From: a virus
Lineage: Duplodnaviria; Caudoviricetes
Virus record (IMG/VR): IMGVR_UViG_3300028832_000007
Span: 6,459 to 70,458 of that record
Strand: one strand, 5' to 3'
Length of the DNA: 64,000 bases
This document shows, one piece after another, positions 4,262 to 33,112 of this stretch. The stretch's first letter is position 1. The number at the start of each line of letters is the position of its first letter. The notes below the pieces were generated by a model. That model saw nothing but the letters and a program-made list of their open reading frames with translations. It did no database searches and was not told the origin of the DNA. A program made the position numbers and the translations under genes.

Positions 4262-4794
4262 AAAAAGAAATCAAACGAGGGATAGTCGTCACGCTCGGCT
4301 TCCTCCTCATCTTGCTGGCTATTAATCTTCTTTTCTCGTGCTCTCCGAAGATTGTGGAGAAGATCGAGACCAAGGTGGAGTATCGTGATTCTATTCGCGT
4401 CGAGGTCCGGGAGAGGATAGTCCATGACACAGTGAAGGTGCAAGTGCCTGTGGAGATTGAGAAGGTCGTAACCCCTTCGGACTCTTCGCACATTGAGACA
4501 TCCTTCGCGGTTAGCGAGGCTGTAATGAAAGACGGCATGTTGCATCATTCAATTTGGAACAAGCCCCAGGCGATAGAGGTCCCAGTGGCGATACCCGTTA
4601 AAGATTCGACGGAATATCATCAGACCTCATCAGTAAACGATACAGCGGTCGAGAAGACTGTCTATGTAGAGAAACCCTTGTCTTGGTGGCAAAAGTTCAG
4701 AATTTGGGCGTTTTTCCCGCTTCTATTGGCCGTCCTTTATCTTGGCAGAAAGTATATCTGGAAATTCATCGAACTAATCCTTAAACTCATATAA
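4258..4794 (+). CDS. Lipoprotein with C-terminal transmembrane helix; unimolecular-spanin-like
   Basis: Signal peptide ending LLFSC (lipobox), beta-rich V/E/K/T body, C-terminal WWQKFRIWAFFPLLLAVLYLG; overlaps the endolysin stop. Confidence 0.65.
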   Translation: MKKEIKRGIVVTLGFLLILLAINLLFSCSPKIVEKIETKVEYRDSIRVEVRERIVHDTVKVQVPVEIEKVVTPSDSSHIETSFAVSEAVMKDGMLHHSIWNKPQAIEVPVAIPVKDSTEYHQTSSVNDTAVEKTVYVEKPLSWWQKFRIWAFFPLLLAVLYLGRKYIWKFIELILKLI

Positions 4795-5332: not shown

Positions 5333-5580
5333 CGTTCTACAAATACAAGGTAGACAACAACCTCTGTTCCGTAGAGGAGATAAACAGCGTGCTTAAGGCC
5401 CTCGAGGAAAATATGGAAATATACGGAACCATCGAGGATTTCTCAAAGTTCTACAACACTCCGGAGAGCAATATCCGCTCCATGATCTGCCGCAAACTGC
5501 TTGCCAAACCAAAGAGGGTCCTCCTGTATCCTTTCCACAAATTCGTGGACATCGTGCCTGAGAAATGGCGCAAAAAATAA
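5299..5580 (+). CDS. Small putative DNA-binding (HTH-like) protein
   Basis: GTIEDFSKFYNTPESNIRSMICRK resembles an excisionase-type HTH. Confidence 0.45.
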   Translation: MEPAKLLSEILAFYKYKVDNNLCSVEEINSVLKALEENMEIYGTIEDFSKFYNTPESNIRSMICRKLLAKPKRVLLYPFHKFVDIVPEKWRKK

Positions 5581-9127: not shown

Positions 9128-9775
9128 TTATTTTATTAGTTCAAACTCGTACACGAATACATACGGATTGCTCTCCCAGGTCCCTTTGCCGGATACCTTG
9201 TCAATGAGAGCAGCAAAGGCTTCACGAGGTGTGAAATAATGTGTTCTACTGTTTTCGAAACGGTAATATGAAACTGCATGTCCATTCTGAAAACTTACAT
9301 CAATTCCTTCCCTAAAGCAGTCCTCCTCGCTGATATCCTGGAGCCTTTCGATGTGGATATTCGTGATACGGATCTGGTGAGGCATAAGGTCTGCACGGAC
9401 AAACATCTTGTTGTCCCAACCTCCGCTCTGCATAAGGTGTGAGTACGGATGGCTTGCCTCGCAAATAGTCCCATCGTTAAGCGCAACATCTTCGTATGTT
9501 TCTGGGTTATATCGAGGAATATCCCGATAGGCTTGCGCCACGGCCACAACCTCGCCGGGCTGATAACGCGGAAAAATATCGAGATAGTCTGTAGCGAATG
9601 GAAGTTTAAGAACGAGCGATATCATCGCCCTCCCTTTTTCGTCCATACCCCACTCAGTAAGATCGCATTCGGACATGCCTTTCAATTCTGGGACAATCCT
9701 TCTCGTCATCGTCTTGCGACCTTCCAGCACGGCTCTTGTAAGACCGTACTTGTCATTAAACATTATCTTTTTCAT
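9128..9775 (-). CDS. ASCH/PUA-like domain phage protein
   Basis: MKKIMFND...AVLEGRKTMTRR start, ITNIHIERLQDISEEDCFREGI and WESNPYVFVYEF end. Confidence 0.7.
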   Translation of the reverse strand: MKKIMFNDKYGLTRAVLEGRKTMTRRIVPELKGMSECDLTEWGMDEKGRAMISLVLKLPFATDYLDIFPRYQPGEVVAVAQAYRDIPRYNPETYEDVALNDGTICEASHPYSHLMQSGGWDNKMFVRADLMPHQIRITNIHIERLQDISEEDCFREGIDVSFQNGHAVSYYRFENSRTHYFTPREAFAALIDKVSGKGTWESNPYVFVYEFELIK

Positions 9776-10152
9776 TTCTTTGTTCTGATTAATTCAAATG
9801 CACTAACCCCCTGCTTCTCCCAGTATTTCCGAATAGCTTCCCATATCGCATCCTCTTCCATTTCAGCGGTATAAAATACGTTTCCCGTATCGACGCACCT
9901 GTATTGTCGTTGGCGAATGGATACTTCCGTGCCTCGATAAGTCACGTTCTGCGTCACCCATTCTTCGACCACTGGTCCTCCCGAGAACGGAGACTTGAAT
10001 CCTGGCACAACTTTCTCCAGCTTCACTGTCATATCGTCATTCAGGGAAAGCCAGAGGTCCACTTCCTTCCCATTATGGACGATAGGAATGTCAGCGGTAT
10101 TCAGCTGAGAACCTATCGCCGCCATCCGTTTAGATAATTCGTTAAGAGTCAT
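9772..10152 (-). CDS. Hypothetical protein with YgiT/MqsA-type zinc-finger-like C-terminus; true start 10152
   Basis: MTLNELS...; VTYRGTEVSIRQRQYRCVDTGNVFYTAEME. The longer ORF-track start (10428) overlaps the upstream gene. Confidence 0.55.
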   Translation of the reverse strand: MTLNELSKRMAAIGSQLNTADIPIVHNGKEVDLWLSLNDDMTVKLEKVVPGFKSPFSGGPVVEEWVTQNVTYRGTEVSIRQRQYRCVDTGNVFYTAEMEEDAIWEAIRKYWEKQGVSAFELIRTKK

Positions 10153-24605: not shown

Positions 24606-26762
24606 TCAAATCAAATCGTAAGTTGGTTTATTGATTTCGTATTCTTCGGCTCTGATAACGATATCGTCGTAATCGCAGTCTCCGTAGTGTAATTCGGCAT
24701 AGCCATTGTGGTGGTTCTCGGTGTTATGAATGCCTGCCGAGTAATACTCCTCAAACATCTCCTCATCTTCGATGAACGCCTCGTCTACTCTTGCTACAGC
24801 ATCGCCAAACTCTTCATAAACCCCAAGAATGATGAAACTATCGTCATCTGCAGTGTGACGAACACGCGTCACAACCCATACTTTCTTTGCCATAACTATT
24901 CTCCTATTACTTGTTTAACAAAATCACTCCTGAGGTACAATACGAGCACCCAGTAGCCGCCGTCCAGCAACTCATCGTTGTAGTCGGCCTCGAAGTCGCA
25001 GCCGTCCAGGAGAGCCTGCATGCCGTACGGGTTGTCTTCCTCATCAGTCTCAATGTCGTAGAGCTTTACGCCCCACTTATCCCTGTTTTCCCACAACTGC
25101 TTGAATGCGTCCTCGTGGGAGCAGCAGTCAAAGGAGTGTCTTTCGGGCTGTCCATCCCCAGGATAGCCAACCTCCCAAAATGCTAAGATTGTCATGGTCT
25201 ATTCAGTTTTGATTAGTTCTGTATGCGTGTTCTCGAACTCTGTCGGGTCGTCTTCATACTCCCCGTTGTTGTAGCGGTCCTGGGCGATCATGCTTGCATC
25301 GTCCTCATTGTCCGCCTCTACTGTGATGTCCACCCAGCTGCGGTAGTGGAATCGGTAAGTGTATTTTGCCATAACTATAATACTATTTGATATCCATAAC
25401 ACCAGTGCCCGTCTGAAAGACCGAACACGCAGTGCTCAATGCTTTTCACATCAATCTCATTCACCATCGTTCCGTACTTTTGACCCGGAGCGCGGCAGAG
25501 TTCAACCCATTTAATCTTTGCCTGTTTTGGAGTATCCGCACCCCAACCTCCACGATAGGTTACGGTATCTCCAATCTTAATAGTTTCCATTGTCTACTCG
25601 GTTATTGTCCCAACACTTCACATCTTGTAATTTCCACTTCATAATGCGTATGGCTCCATCCTTCAGCCATGCTATACAGACAGAAGTAATCCGGCTTGTT
25701 CTTGTCAATCTTCATATCTTCGTCCGAATCTTCCATGTAATCGGAAATAGCCTCCTCCTTAGCACCGCTGAGGGACTTCCTCGCATCATCCAGATTCGAG
25801 AACACATACGGCTCGTGATCGAATTGCTCGAAATCAGAGACCTCATTAATTGTAACTACGTAAACTTCCATAACTATTCTTCGTCTATAAATTCCACTCT
25901 CATCCCCACGATCTCTCCATTGGTGTTCTTGCTGATGTAAAGGTCATAAAGTCCTTTGCCGTATCCGCTCGCCGAAACAACGCCCTTATTGTCAATAGCC
26001 CCCCAACGCTTACTCAAACCTTTAGAGTCTAGAGTTATATCGCAGATCCTGCGGTACCAGCTATCGTCTGGTCGATGCTCTTTATAGTAGTCGAAATCAA
26101 AGAATCCACACTGACGGCTATCGACGCCAATGCTGCCCGACTCGAACTTAGATATTTCGCCTTCCGGATAATCCTCGTGACGGGCAATCAGTTCTGCTAT
26201 ATAGCCTTCTTTAGTTCTTTTCACCTCTACTCCCCATACTCCTGGAAGAACATTCGACAGCTCTTTCTGACACCATATCCCGACCTCATAACAAGGATCA
26301 GAGACGATTACTTTCTTTCCTAAAATTATTTTTTCCATTGTTAGTCCTCCTTTCGTGTTACTTTGAAATGTTCACAGGCTTCGTAGAGAGCGTCAGAGAA
26401 AAGGTCGTCGAAATAGTTTCCGACATACGATGCGATTTTCTCCATCAGAATATCTGGAATGTTGTCCCCATTAAACCCGAGATTGTTGATAACGTCGCGA
26501 TCAACATCCATGATCACGAAAATTTCCTTCTTGTGCTTCATAATATGATAAATTAAAACATATCGGGATTACTCATGTAAATCTCGTATTCTATAACTTT
26601 CTTGCGAGCTTCTTCCGGATCCGCAAAAGCGGATTGAAATCTACGCTTATCCCTTCTAGGGTTGGCGGCATATTTACCCCTTCCGTCCCTATCTTTCTTT
26701 GCGATAAGGTGACATGGAATAATCTCGTAATTATGCACCGCCCAAAATACCTGTCGGGCCAT
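24606..26762 (-). CDS. Cluster of small acidic hypothetical genes (24606-24893, 24896-25195, 25199-25372, 25375-25590, 25602-25871, 25874-26338 with SDPCY motif, 26341-26541, 26553-26762)
   Basis: Contiguous coupled ORFs with high D/E content. Confidence 0.65.
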
Positions 26763-26764
26763 GA

Positions 26765-26959
26765 CTAATTCAACTCTATCTTCACATTCATTCCCAGTGC
26801 ATCGGCCCACTGGTATAGCCTTTTCAGTGTCAGTCCTCCGTGGCCATTCTCTATCTCGCTCAGACGAGCACGCTCCGTGCCCATCAGCTTGGATAGCCCT
26901 CCCAAAGAGATGCCCTTCCTCAGGCGCTCCTCTTTTAAACGCTCTACTATATCTTCCAT
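26765..26959 (-). CDS. XRE-family helix-turn-helix regulator
   Basis: RLKEERLRKGISLGGLSKLMGTERARLSEIENG..GLTLKRL..WADALG. Confidence 0.85.
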   Translation of the reverse strand: MEDIVERLKEERLRKGISLGGLSKLMGTERARLSEIENGHGGLTLKRLYQWADALGMNVKIELN

Positions 26960-26974
26960 GTCGTATATACACTT

Positions 26975-27493
26975 TCAATATTCAATTATCTCCGCTTTTT
27001 TTACTCTATTTTTGGGAACATAGTAGAAGCTTCCGGCGATCAGTAGCCACCAGGTCTTAAACTGACACCCTGGCGCCATCTTGATGACGGTCCGGCTTGT
27101 TCCGTCCTTCAGTTCCACTTTAAGTTTGGCGCCCACCGGCGCATCCTTCAGCGTCGTGTCCTTCTTGTTGGCACGGCACTTCTCGCGCCACTCGATCGCG
27201 TACTTGTTATCAGTCGGACTCAACGCATCCAGGACCGACTTGGGGCACTCGCATTTGTAAGGCCCGCACTCTTCGTCCATGAACTTCATTCCGAAGTTGC
27301 AGTACCCGGCCCTGTCAATGTGCGTAAGAATAATGGCCGCTCCGACCTTACCGTCATGCGGGCTCTTGACCGCTGCATAGTAAGTCGTGCCTACAACTGC
27401 GTCCCTTACTACCTCGTAGCCGTTGCCGATTTGCCTTCTGCAGATAGCCCTTCTATCGTAAGGCGCTACCTCATGATGATAATCCCATCCCAT
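26975..27493 (-). CDS. DUF6927-like protein
   Basis: GTTYYAAV...AAIILT...FGMKFMDEECGPY.CECP.SVLDALSPT..YAIEWR.KCR. Confidence 0.65.
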   Translation of the reverse strand: MGWDYHHEVAPYDRRAICRRQIGNGYEVVRDAVVGTTYYAAVKSPHDGKVGAAIILTHIDRAGYCNFGMKFMDEECGPYKCECPKSVLDALSPTDNKYAIEWREKCRANKKDTTLKDAPVGAKLKVELKDGTSRTVIKMAPGCQFKTWWLLIAGSFYYVPKNRVKKAEIIEY

Positions 27494-27495
27494 TG

Positions 27496-28017
27496 CTATT
27501 CTCCTTCTTTCATGAATTTGTTTATCCGGTCGTAGACGGCCTGAAAGAACTCGTCATGCACTCCGTCGATGTACCGCAACGGCACCGAGTCGAAATACTT
27601 GCTCAGGTCTGATTTCCAGCCGATCACGTCTCCTGCAGTCGAGCATATCCTCCTGCTTACCTCCTGCACGACCCGGCCACATCCTACACCCTTCTGATAA
27701 GACTTGCACCTCGGATGTATCATGTCCGGGCACAGCTCGAACAGCAGGTCATTGACTATGCTGAGCACAATCCGGTCGATCGGCTCATTGACATAGACCG
27801 TACGGAATTCCCCCGGCGTATCCTTCGGAATCCGTGCCGTGTGTGGCGGAGATATCTGATACCGCCCGTCCTTCATCTGCTGATAGATGTACGCTCGCAC
27901 CTCAGGCTTGGCAAGCTGATACAGCTGGTCTCGCCGCACATCCTTACCGATACCCTTGGAGATGGCATACGTCCATCGGTCAAGGTCGAAGAACATTGTT
28001 AATAACTTGTCTTCCAT
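27496..28017 (-). pseudogene. Reverse transcriptase, N-terminal half only (motifs 0-3; no YxDD)
   Basis: PPHTARIPK..GEFRTVYVNEPIDRIVL (motifs 1-2), IHPRCKSYQKGVG (2a), WKSDLSKYFDSV (3); then an unrelated 20-aa tail and stop. Confidence 0.85.
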
Positions 28018-28026
28018 AATATGTTT

Positions 28027-30890
28027 TTACTTTATGTATTTCACAATTTCAGATGTCGGTATATACCAGCCGTCATATATCATGCAACGGCCCAACCTTA
28101 CATCCGGATCATCATCGTACTTTATAAGGCAATCCCCGGACAGCTTCGTGCCAGCCGATGCCCTGCGCCAGCATATTTCTGCAACCATTTTTCTTACCTC
28201 CCGTCGATAACTTTCCAATCCACTACGCGAACATCAGTCTCGCCCAGCTTCTGATCAGTGACTGTGAACGCCAGGCCACTAACGACCGTGTCCCCCTTGA
28301 CATATTCAGGGTTGGCCGCATCTACGTGATACATCACACCATCAATATTCACATCTCCCTCAAACCCTATTTCAAACAATTCCTGCTCCGTAAGCGGTTC
28401 TTCATCGAAATACAGGGACTCTACGTATATGTGCCCGTTAAAGCTCAACGTGAGCTCTATTTCATTTATTCCTTTCATGTTAAACCCATTCTATTGAATT
28501 ATACGTGCAACCTTCAAAGTCGGTGTGCACACCGCGATGTATTTTTGCATGCTCCTTCATGTAATCCCGCTGGTCGCGGAATATCTCCAGAGCCCTCTTC
28601 TTGCCTAAAGACTCGGCGTACGGCAATCCATACATTCCCCAGGAACTTGTCTTCTCATCGTAAAAGTCGTACTCGGTCCCGTAGCAGATGCAGGCCATCA
28701 CCATCTCCCGACACCATAACTCATCTTCCTCCCTGCGCATCTCGTCCGTAAAAAACGGCCACAGCTCGCTAAGACCGCCGTCCTCACCGCGTATCTCAGC
28801 GGCTCTCTTTGCCAGGTCTCTTTTGGCCTGTGCAATCATTTTGTCTGTCATAATTCTTCGTCTAAATAGTCCCAGAACAAGGCCGTCTCCAGAAACTCTG
28901 TCGTTATGTCTTCCGGAGCCATGCCGTCCTCTATCAGGCCGTTAATGATATGCTCAGGCACCTCCCGGCCGAATGCGTAATACTTTTTTATACCCATATG
29001 ATTTCGTCAACTACTTCATCGAGATCCAAGCCCAGGAAGTCAACTCCGTTGTCCACACACCACTCCTCGATGGTATCTGATATGTCGTCAAACAACGCAT
29101 GATTCGCTACCTCCAGCGGACAGTGCATGACACCCATCATACTCAGCGCCAACTGGATGCGCTCCTCATAAAATTCCACATTATCCCGCACATAGGCGGC
29201 AATGTCCCTAATTCGCTTTGTCATAATCTTAAACTTTTAGTTCAAACTCAGAACATCTGCACGCATAGGCTTCCGGACGGACAGCATAGAAATATCCCTG
29301 CCTGCCGGCGATAGTCTTCGGCTTCAGTTCGCAATGATGGTTAACCCACCACTGGTCCTGCATCGTCAATTTACCCTCATGGCAATGGACGCAATCCGCA
29401 CACCTCGGGCCGGCATACCTCACCTGCCTCTTGATAATCTGCACTCTACGCCCTTTATCAACAATCTTCGCCCGGCACTCGGGCACGATCTTGTATGTCC
29501 CTTCCGTCAGTTCCATGTCGCTACTCTACATAAAAATCCCTGACAAATCCGCCCTTAAACCGAGCACACAGCTCTGCCCATTCAGGCTTTATCAGCTGCT
29601 GGCCGTTTCTACTCAGACATACCGGATACAGACCGCCTGGAACATGCGTAAAGCACTCGCCCGGCTCACAGTCTCTATATCCGACCGAAAAGTAAAGGTT
29701 TACCGGCTCAACCTGCTCACCCTTATCATTCACATAGTAAAGGTCCCCAACCATTTGAGGACCTGACTTATTCACACCTTCGCACTTATCGAGTAATGCC
29801 ATAAGCTCTTTTCTATGCTGCTCGAGCATCTCTTCCCATGTACTCATAACTCGTCCGCCTCCTGGATAATTTCCTCTGCTACCATGATACGGTCGCCTGA
29901 CTCAACAATTCGGAATCCGTCAGCCTTCATGGAAAAGAGGTTCAGTTTACTACTCAGGCTCTTTACCATTTGACTCTCTGCAAGATGCTCGGCCGTTACA
30001 GGTTTACCTAAGCGTTTTCTTTTTTGGATGCACCGGGCAGCTGCCTGGAACTGCTCATAAATTCCATATTCCTGCACGTTCAGCAGGTACACGTGAATCA
30101 AATCGTTGCGTTCAGAATGCTTATTCGTGTCCATAACTCTCTATTTAAGTAAAAACCTCTCCTTGAACAAATCAAGCTTATTCTCGTTATCAATCTCGTC
30201 TGCCTTTTCCTGATACGTGTAATGAGTCCACTCCACCCTGTCCTGTCGTGTCATGATGTTCCCAACAAACTCAGATACGGTCAGCGATATACTCCAGTAT
30301 GCTTCTTCCGTTCCATACACCTTCAGGTCAGTGAATCCGTTCACTTTGCCACAGAGACTATTCTGTATCTGCTGGAACTCGGCCAGCACTTGCTTTTTTG
30401 TCTTCATGTCATTCATTGTTTACTCGGTTATACAATGTAGTCGTGTGCGTGTCCGTTCAACTGCCAGAACCCGCACTTGTTCCTGAATATCCACCGATAA
30501 GCCGTTGAAAACTTAATCGGCCTGACTTCATAGTTGTTCCATACGCCCATCAACTCGCGGGCTGCTTGCTTTCTATTCATCACTCAACCCCTCCACCTTC
30601 CAGAACCACACCTCACGGTCATCGGTATCGAATTTTTCAGCATCGTTCCGCACGATAACCACGTCGCACGGATGGTTTATATCGAACGGATGAATCTTGC
30701 TCGCAGTACACTCCCACACGGTGAGGTATATAGCATCTTTCTCTATTGTTCCAGCCTTGATACGGAAATCGCCGAACGTTTGTTTCAGCCAATCGTTGAC
30801 CAGACGCGACCCGTCCCAACTTACCAACCCGCCACACTCGGCCAAGCTACTATCTTGGAGCATATTCTTGATTATCTCTATCGCTTTCAT
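28027..30890 (-). CDS. Cluster of small early hypothetical genes (incl. 28027-28218, 28194-28478, 28480-28851, 28988-29224, 29229-29516, 29521-29847, 29844-30134, 30141-30416, 30428-30580, 30573-30890)
   Basis: Contiguous coupled ORFs. Confidence 0.65.
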
Positions 30891-32116: not shown

Positions 32117-32494
32117 TTACTTGCTCTCCTTCTCAGCCTTGGAGGCGTTGAGTATCCTCGCCCTGTTCGCCCTGCGGACATAGTCCACCACCTGACCTGC
32201 CGTCCATGTGGTCTTAGGCTTGAACTCGCCCTTGCTGGTCGTGCCTATGACCTTGTCCTTGCAGTAGTTCGTGCCGTCGAGGTGCTTGATGATGAATGCG
32301 GACGAGAAGTCCTCGATAACCAGTCCGTCGTCCTTCGCGGACTTGATGCTGGATGCGAGTTCCGGGTCCTTCTCCGGCTTGTCCCACACTGCCTTTACTG
32401 CCTTTATGGCGTGGTTCATTCCTTTGCCTTCGAGGTTTGCACTGGTTCTGAAAGCCTTTGCGTTTGCTGTTGAGAAATTTACGATTGTTTTCAT
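32117..32494 (-). CDS. First gene of the leftward early operon; Lys/Ala-rich hypothetical protein
   Basis: 125-aa ORF with a good A/T-rich initiation region and biased codon usage. Confidence 0.75.
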   Translation of the reverse strand: MKTIVNFSTANAKAFRTSANLEGKGMNHAIKAVKAVWDKPEKDPELASSIKSAKDDGLVIEDFSSAFIIKHLDGTNYCKDKVIGTTSKGEFKPKTTWTAGQVVDYVRRANRARILNASKAEKESK

Positions 32495-33112
32495 GATACT
32501 AAAATTTTGAGGTTAAACATAAGATTAGCACCCCCCGACAGAATCGGACTGTCGCAGGGTAGCCGTTCGCAACTATCTCTTCGTCTCTTCCAAACCATCG
32601 GAAAAGCATGGTAATCACTTTAGTTGCCGTAGCCGTTATTTGTCTTTTTATCTTCTATTCGTTAGTATTCTTGTATGCCGTGTTCGTTCGCGTTCACATA
32701 CACCGATATATCGGGCTGCACCCTCAACACCATACTAACGCAGAGTTGGGATTTCCGGCACCCAACCGCCTAATAAAAAAGTTTCATCTGTTAGAATCCC
32801 CTTTGCAGTGCTCCTGCGTAATCGGATACGTTACGCCCCTACTTAGCAATATTTCCGTGCCTAACTTCGCTTTTGGCATAGTGGGTTTATTCAGCTATGG
32901 GTGCGACTTCCTGCCGTGGCAGTGTTCGCAGATACGGCTGTATGGCTTTTGACCTCCTCAACTAACATTCATGTTAGGATATCGTTTCCGACATCTTCAA
33001 CGGGTGGACTACCTTTTTCGGGTAACTGCACAGACTTGTCAATGAACAAACACCGCTTACAATCCTACGGCTTGTAATGTGTTCCGTATCTCTCCCCTCT
33101 CTCATGTTGCTG
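32495..33112 (-). ncRNA. Candidate large structured ncRNA / 5' leader (~615 nt)
   Basis: Lies between a consensus promoter and the first ORF; at least seven stems found by eye; no sense-strand ORF of 60 aa or more. Confidence 0.6.

Follow-up and report, generated by a model that had tools for sequence, protein, structure and literature searches.

Within a 64,000-nt stretch of phage DNA (hereafter, the window), the 173-codon ORF on the minus strand at 27496..28017 (ORF list of the window) is most probably an inert and recent remnant of a phage UG27 reverse transcriptase (RT) system. The virus record from which the window is taken is 70,458 bp long, carries direct terminal repeats and is estimated to be 100% complete; its GP88-like and further phage genes share synteny with contigs of related phages. 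The ORF, here called the stub, is the front part of a UG27 RT followed by a short foreign sequence. Its surroundings were delimited with the help of two related contigs, L089 and L090, and are given below in the direction of transcription.

28027..28478, minus strand: gene directly upstream of the stub, split into ORFs of 94 aa and 63 aa (pairwise DNA alignment with L089).
27559..28017, minus strand: codons 1–153 of a UG27 (Class 2 UG/Abi) RT, comprising the fingers and motifs 1–3 with the motif-A Asp and ending ...RYIDGV (RT_UG27 positions 1–156 of 420; L089 DNA).
27496..27558, minus strand: foreign 20-codon tail (HDEFFQAVYDRINKFMKEGE) and TAG stop; the AAGGAG ahead of the next gene lies within its last codons (L089 homology ends at 27559, L090 homology starts at 27494).
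26975..27493, minus strand: 172-aa gene with a weak DUF6927 match and phrog_21047, a putatively mobile early-region cassette adjoining the RT stub (Pfam DUF6927, PHROGs, L090 DNA).
26760..26959, minus strand: 64-aa XRE-type HTH gene (ORF 26765..26959), the right edge of the replaced segment (L089 DNA, Pfam HTH_3).

When compared with the PADLOC models, the stub matched positions 1–156 of the 420-position RT_UG27 profile with an E-value of 1.9e-77 and 259 bits, as against at most 31 bits for the best RT model outside UG27. Judged by these scores, the assignment to UG27 is far beyond chance. An earlier, sequence-only reading of the locus had called it a non-DGR, non-retron RT of an unknown group and had proposed HMM placement among the RT classes; that placement bears the call out, the N-terminus being of the UG27 type rather than that of a retron, DGR, group II or other UG enzyme. 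The Pfam model RVT_1 matched below its cut-off (positions 1–91 of 205, E = 2.3e-5), PHROGs assigned the ORF to a reverse-transcriptase family, and UG27 RTs of 421 aa are 82–99% identical to the N-terminal region of the stub. The same reading had likened the N-terminus to a family of ~450-aa RTs of Bacteroidota phages with the signature YVRYSDD; this is UG27, whose members measure ~420–450 aa, carry YxRYSDD and occur in gut phages.

By descent the stub is a UG27 protein, but not a working member of the family. RT motifs 1–3 are present, including the motif-A Asp within WKSDLSKYFDSV, and the ORF ends 16 residues further on. What full-length relatives have and the stub lacks are the QG of motif B, the YSDD of motif C, motifs D and E and the thumb; of the hallmarks of an active RT, i.e. 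motif-B QG, motif-C YxDD, two further catalytic Asp residues and a thumb, none is found. A full-length member should cover the ~420 positions of the RT_UG27 profile, as does P0244, an intact 421-aa RT (positions 1–420, E = 2.8e-223), while the match of the stub is confined to 1–156. It is well established in RT enzymology that an RT without two of its three catalytic aspartates cannot polymerise.

More than 2,500 longer relatives of the stub protein were retrieved, nearly all of them 414–425 aa in length, and 77 out of 80 viral loci of related RTs have an RT ORF within this range (417–424 aa); a megablast search of GenBank phages with the stub region gave no match. Intact loci share a layout of RT, a gene-free gap of 670–850 nt, a gene of ~150 aa and one of 324–354 aa. 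HMM searches of L089 identified the two helpers as RTas346 (~150 aa, E = 8e-60) and RTas337 (~324 aa, E = 2e-116). In an alignment of six gaps, a unit motif, TA[ACT]AGNA[AT]TG[CT][AG], was found three times per RT–RTas346 gap in three intact loci (L089 11267–11934, L085 7267–7964 and L086 7318–8136), with copies ~155–360 nt apart. Such threefold repetition fits the tandem ncRNA units known from publications. Mestre et al. (2022, Nucleic Acids Res 50:6084, PMC9226505) described UG27 as a Class 2 UG/Abi RT accompanied by an intergenic ncRNA and by proteins of clusters 346 and 337, frequent among the human-gut phages that infect Bacteroidetes and Firmicutes and without enrichment in defence islands; ncRNA arrays lately discovered beside UG27 RTs are mentioned in a 2026 preprint.

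The other parts of such a system are gone from this genome. Six-frame HMM searches that read through stops, run over the whole 70,458-bp record, gave one partial match to RT_UG27 and none to its positions 157–420, and RVT_1 returned the same single partial match only. The observation that the RT is cut before its QG and YxDD, originally made within the window, is thus extended to the entire record; a remaining RT piece elsewhere, be it through a split gene, an intron or recoding, was considered and rejected because of this one partial match. As positive controls, the same HMM searches detected RT_UG27 and RTas337 in two other phage records with E-values of ~1e-123 or better. Neither RTas346 (cluster 346, ~150 aa) nor RTas337 (cluster 337, ~320–350 aa) was found in the whole genome, whether the L089 protein or the HMM was used as query, and 1,475 nt of L089 covering the 3′ part of the RT and the gap had no DNA match there. 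Where a structured ncRNA would be expected downstream of the RT, the next gene begins 2 nt past the stop. The unit motif occurs nowhere on either strand of the 64-kb window, and an nhmmer profile of the ncRNA gap, which gave weak but correctly placed matches in loci outside its build set, reached a best E-value of 4.6 in the window. The RT 3′ half, the ncRNA array, RTas346 and RTas337 are all absent from the genome. The suggestion that the locus is a relic of an RT–ncRNA system therefore stands, as the RNA region and both partner genes are gone.

Alignment with the closest full-length locus, likewise proposed beforehand, mapped the deletion and the lost partner genes. The 90%-identity cluster of the stub protein includes P0244, which differs from the stub at 2 of residues 1–153 and diverges completely thereafter. 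Its contig, L089 (64.2 kb), shows 80–98% DNA identity to the window in aligned blocks on both sides of the stub region. Window positions 28019–27559 align with L089 9999–10459 at 95.9% identity through RT codon 153 (...YIDGV), and DNA homology stops at 27559, in agreement with the break position noticed from the sequence, beyond which the 20 residues of the tail are foreign. Homology to L089 resumes at the HTH gene (window 26959–26760 versus L089 14953–15152, 93.5%; Pfam HTH_3, E = 4e-9). The replaced segment thus measures 4,493 nt in L089 versus 599 nt in the window: in the former it holds RT codons 154–421, a 668-nt gap, RTas346, RTas337, a 693-nt spacer and genes of 85 aa and 206 aa, and in the latter the 20-codon tail, the stop and the 172-aa gene. 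L090 is intermediate in layout: RTas337 and a gap of 888 nt are followed there by the same 172-aa gene and the HTH gene, and the window is homologous to L090 from 27494 on, a single base ahead of the ATG of this 172-aa gene. On the upstream side, L089 has 688 extra nt (9311–9998, genes of 87 aa and 120 aa) between a 151-aa gene and the RT start, for which the window has only 28018–28026; a joint is therefore placed 2 nt before the RT ATG. According to these alignments, the RT stub is an island with putative recombination joints on both sides.

The 64 nt between the two homologies (27495–27558) match neither L089 nor L090, and only the RT frame is open through them. At the 3′ end the tail reads AAGGAG, GAA, the TAG stop, CA and then the ATG of the next gene, and the encoded protein ends ...DEFFQAVYDRINKFMKEGE. 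With this AAGGAG-GAA-TAG-CA-ATG ending, the tail has the look of a gene's own 3′ terminus. The sequence-only reading had proposed that a deletion fused the RT front half, in frame, to the tail of a small downstream gene. The foreign tail and the intact frame are as it said, while the origin from a small gene is plausible only: no donor was found by tblastn of the tail against 100 loci or by a scan of viral contigs with a degenerate back-translated pattern, and the sequences preceding 7 homologues of the 172-aa gene, taken from viral and metagenome scans, did not contain it either. We also considered that the tail might be diverged RT sequence, which would place the truncation at residue ~168, as BLASTP to P0121, a more distant RT, pairs AVYDRINKF with AVIDVLRKY across a 5-aa gap. 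This was rejected: the 96–99% identity to L089 and P0244 collapses exactly after codon 153, and the tail has no significant similarity to RT residues 154–173 (tblastn E ~1).

An exact-sequence look-up found the identical 173-aa protein in six contigs, among them contigs from four other samples (three Logan runs and one JGI metagenome; SRR8543131, SRR11060108, SRR9008937 and JGI 3300028914). In all four the same 172-aa gene follows 2 nt later, with the HTH gene next where the contig is long enough; the lineage is present in at least five samples. One contig, L088, is 100% identical to the window in DNA over 1,220 nt spanning the junction. It is the one other copy whose DNA was compared, and there is no variation between these stub copies. 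The protein P0242 is a 166-aa form that differs only by a start at Met8. With the same junction in four other samples, an assembly collapse at ~27560, which had been named as a possible objection, was not borne out and is excluded for practical purposes. All carriers of the stub are of one clonal lineage.

Over the shared 153 codons, the window and L089 differ at 17 codons synonymously and at 2 non-synonymously. Polarised with three outgroups, 6 synonymous and 2 non-synonymous changes fall on the window branch, and 9 and 0, respectively, on the L089 branch. The non-synonymous share on the window branch is low (binomial ~0.003 against neutrality, calculated from branch counts and site numbers), which probably means that most of this branch evolved under constraint. 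Such constraint does not separate decay from retention, because the same pattern is expected if the truncation is young compared with the divergence of 4% between window and L089. One of the two non-synonymous changes, A88V, replaces an Ala that 22 of the 25 aligned homologues share. The lack of variation among copies, the location of both non-synonymous changes on the window branch and a frameshifted neighbour can be taken as signs of youth and local decay.

That neighbour is the gene immediately upstream. At 28027–28478 the window has ORFs of 94 aa and 63 aa in place of the one intact 151-aa gene of L089 (8854–9309), and pairwise DNA alignment traces the lesion to a 1-nt gap and a new stop in mid-gene. 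The split is a second lesion, adjoining the RT stub. On the other side, just 2 nt separate the TAG of the stub from the start of the 172-aa gene at 27493, and AAGGAG lies within the last stub codons, so that the next gene does adjoin immediately, as had been remarked. It matched Pfam DUF6927 below the cut-off (E = 7e-6) and phrog_21047 with an E-value of 8e-9, and is 91.8% identical in DNA to L090 2144–2878, where it lies downstream of RTas337. In 7 of 7 other loci examined, members of its family have a different upstream neighbour, and some of these upstream sequences are non-coding. Loci with the 172-aa DUF6927-like gene are L087, L090 and L094–L099, and homology between them breaks at or within a few bases of the ATG. 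The gene thus appears to behave as a mobile cassette of phage early regions. A scan for promoters and terminators around the stub gave nothing beyond chance and no excess between genes. Farther away, ~1 kb of non-coding DNA at the head of the early gene array (window 32124–33109, minus strand) does not align to its non-coding counterpart in L089 (3522–4563); its flanks are 92–98% identical.

The protein search also returned many relatives of 110–300 aa, several of them with odd tails near residue 155–175. Eight loci of such short or split UG27 forms were opened (L003, L082, L083, L084, L091, L092, L102 and L103). In L003 the RT gene is interrupted by one in-frame TAA, at codon 174 (4520–4522), and continues beyond it; L082/L083 have a 1-nt insertion in the RT gene at about position 5500. 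In L091, L092, L102 and L103 the later RT pieces lie inside an RT footprint of normal length and the helper genes are kept; the relevant coordinates are 2716–2730 in L091 and 4607–6122 in L092. L084, the contig of P0043, ends ~120 nt past the short ORF. A stand-alone N-terminal stub was found in none of the 80 viral loci and in none of the eight opened loci, and the recurrence of the truncation in independent phages, which had been put forward as a check, did not materialise. Homologues of 156–175 aa had suggested an insertion hot spot or intron at codons 150–175. This was rejected on account of RT footprints of normal length with no insert, as seen in the opened loci with downstream DNA (L003, L082/L083, L091, L092, L102 and L103). 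The broken N-terminal products P0023, P0061 and P0059 head 90%-identity clusters of 65–243 members; the genes behind them may be pseudogenes or may encode two-piece enzymes that are tolerated. From these sequences, UG27 RT genes seem often to be inactivated in natural phage populations.

The following course of events would account for the locus. An ancestor of this ~70-kb phage would have carried the full module, as L089 still does, consisting of the 421-aa RT, a ~670-nt array of structured ncRNA units, RTas346 (~150 aa) and RTas337 (~324 aa). A single illegitimate recombination or deletion may then have fused RT codon 153 to the last 20 codons of another frame that ended just upstream of the mobile 172-aa gene; RT motifs B–E and the thumb would have gone in the same event, as would the two helper genes and the RNA array. 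By happenstance the join would have been in frame, keeping the 173-aa ORF open and ending it 2 nt before the next ATG. The product is left with a single catalytic aspartate out of three and with half a palm sheet; having neither a primer grip nor a template RNA, it cannot polymerise. Its persistence would be due to the youth of the event and to its position in a tightly packed, co-directional early gene array, not to any need for it. That the module was lost here rather than gained, that this took a single step and that the product has no function is what we infer from the comparisons above. Dispensability of UG27 in this phage group is indicated by the complete 72.8-kb relative behind contig L087: HMM searches found no UG27 system in it, while the 172-aa gene is present along with further early genes that the two phages have in common.

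Some features count against an inert remnant, namely the intact in-frame ORF with its stop 2 nt before an ATG, the preserved Shine-Dalgarno-like AAGGAG and the success of the lineage, seen in five samples or more. An in-frame junction could be explained by a one-in-three chance or by selection. If selection is invoked, it might act on behalf of the neighbour: translation through the stub would deliver ribosomes to the 172-aa gene, and deletions of the stub would be selected against. Stop, 2-nt spacer, ATG and internal AAGGAG are seen directly, and no promoter-like or terminator-like excess lies between the two genes, but the family of the 172-aa gene stands behind 7 unrelated upstream sequences, some non-coding, in 7 other loci, so this gene does not need the stub ORF upstream; moreover, a short upstream ORF would suffice, with no need for 173 codons. 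We consider such coupling unlikely. An error of assembly or binning at ~27560, or a remaining RT part encoded elsewhere and spliced or supplied in trans, has next to no probability given that independent assemblies from four other samples have the same gene order, one of them DNA-identical across the junction, and that six-frame HMM and DNA searches of a complete genome with terminal repeats show no second RT piece.

Selection might also act on the protein itself. A catalytically dead protein of fingers and half a palm could be kept as a decoy or dominant-negative, directed at the ncRNA or helpers of co-infecting UG27 phages or at RT-based defences of the host, as the sequence-only reading had envisaged. 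The open frame, the placement of the stub in series with early genes (and hence its predicted expression), the mostly synonymous changes on the window branch and the occurrence of the lineage in several samples would all agree with this, and a target would be available, since phages related to this one and carrying intact UG27 are in circulation. Yet a single clonal lineage carries the stub, with identical DNA in the copy compared; stand-alone stubs are missing from the 80 viral loci and the eight opened ones; and the other short forms with downstream DNA, ordinary frameshift or nonsense splits, all retain the 3′ part of the RT as well as the helpers. The two non-synonymous changes are both on the window branch, one at a conserved Ala, the adjacent gene is broken too, and half a palm domain would, by analogy with general RT structure, hardly fold stably alone. 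The decoy reading thus found no support and is very unlikely. Because the truncation is unique and recent and purifying selection is not shown, an outcome which that reading had itself named as counting against it, the idea of a functional fragment fails for now. Just as remote is its more specific form, in which a dead UG27 fragment was selected for phage–phage competition and, made early, would titrate the ncRNA units or helpers of a rival; if true, the stub would provide the first dominant-negative RT fragment of natural origin.

With the inert remnant as the preferred reading, the locus is a well-mapped case of a phage losing its UG27 RT module and by itself carries little weight: the UG27 family, its partners and its RNA are already published, and a deletion remnant is ordinary. 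Within one group of ~64–73 kb phages, the module is intact in L089, reduced to a stub in the window and absent from the L087 record. As the three states coexist in one group and broken RT alleles are common in metagenomes, the picture fits UG27 as accessory cargo that is often lost, and not as a core function in replication. For annotation, the case advises caution, as an N-terminal HMM match alone should not count as an RT or a defence-related gene.

Set beside the UG27 systems of Mestre et al. (2022), the stub is alike in that its first 153 residues are those of a UG27 RT, with 2/153 differences from an intact 421-aa enzyme, and in being phage-borne within an early gene array; it is unlike them in that the locus is without RT motifs B–E, thumb, ncRNA array, RTas346 and RTas337. 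The split UG27 RT genes of L003, L082/L083, L091, L092, L102 and L103 resemble it in their N-terminal ORFs of 158–201 aa with short aberrant tails, but in them the 3′ RT sequence is still there, behind a single stop or in a different frame, and so are the helper genes, whereas in the window this DNA is gone. Mosaic recombination at gene boundaries is well established for the early and accessory regions of phage genomes. The joints 2 nt before the RT ATG, at codon 153 and at the ATG of the 172-aa gene are reminiscent of such mosaicism, except that the codon-153 joint sits within a gene; a truncated ORF was left behind because this junction did not fall at a boundary.
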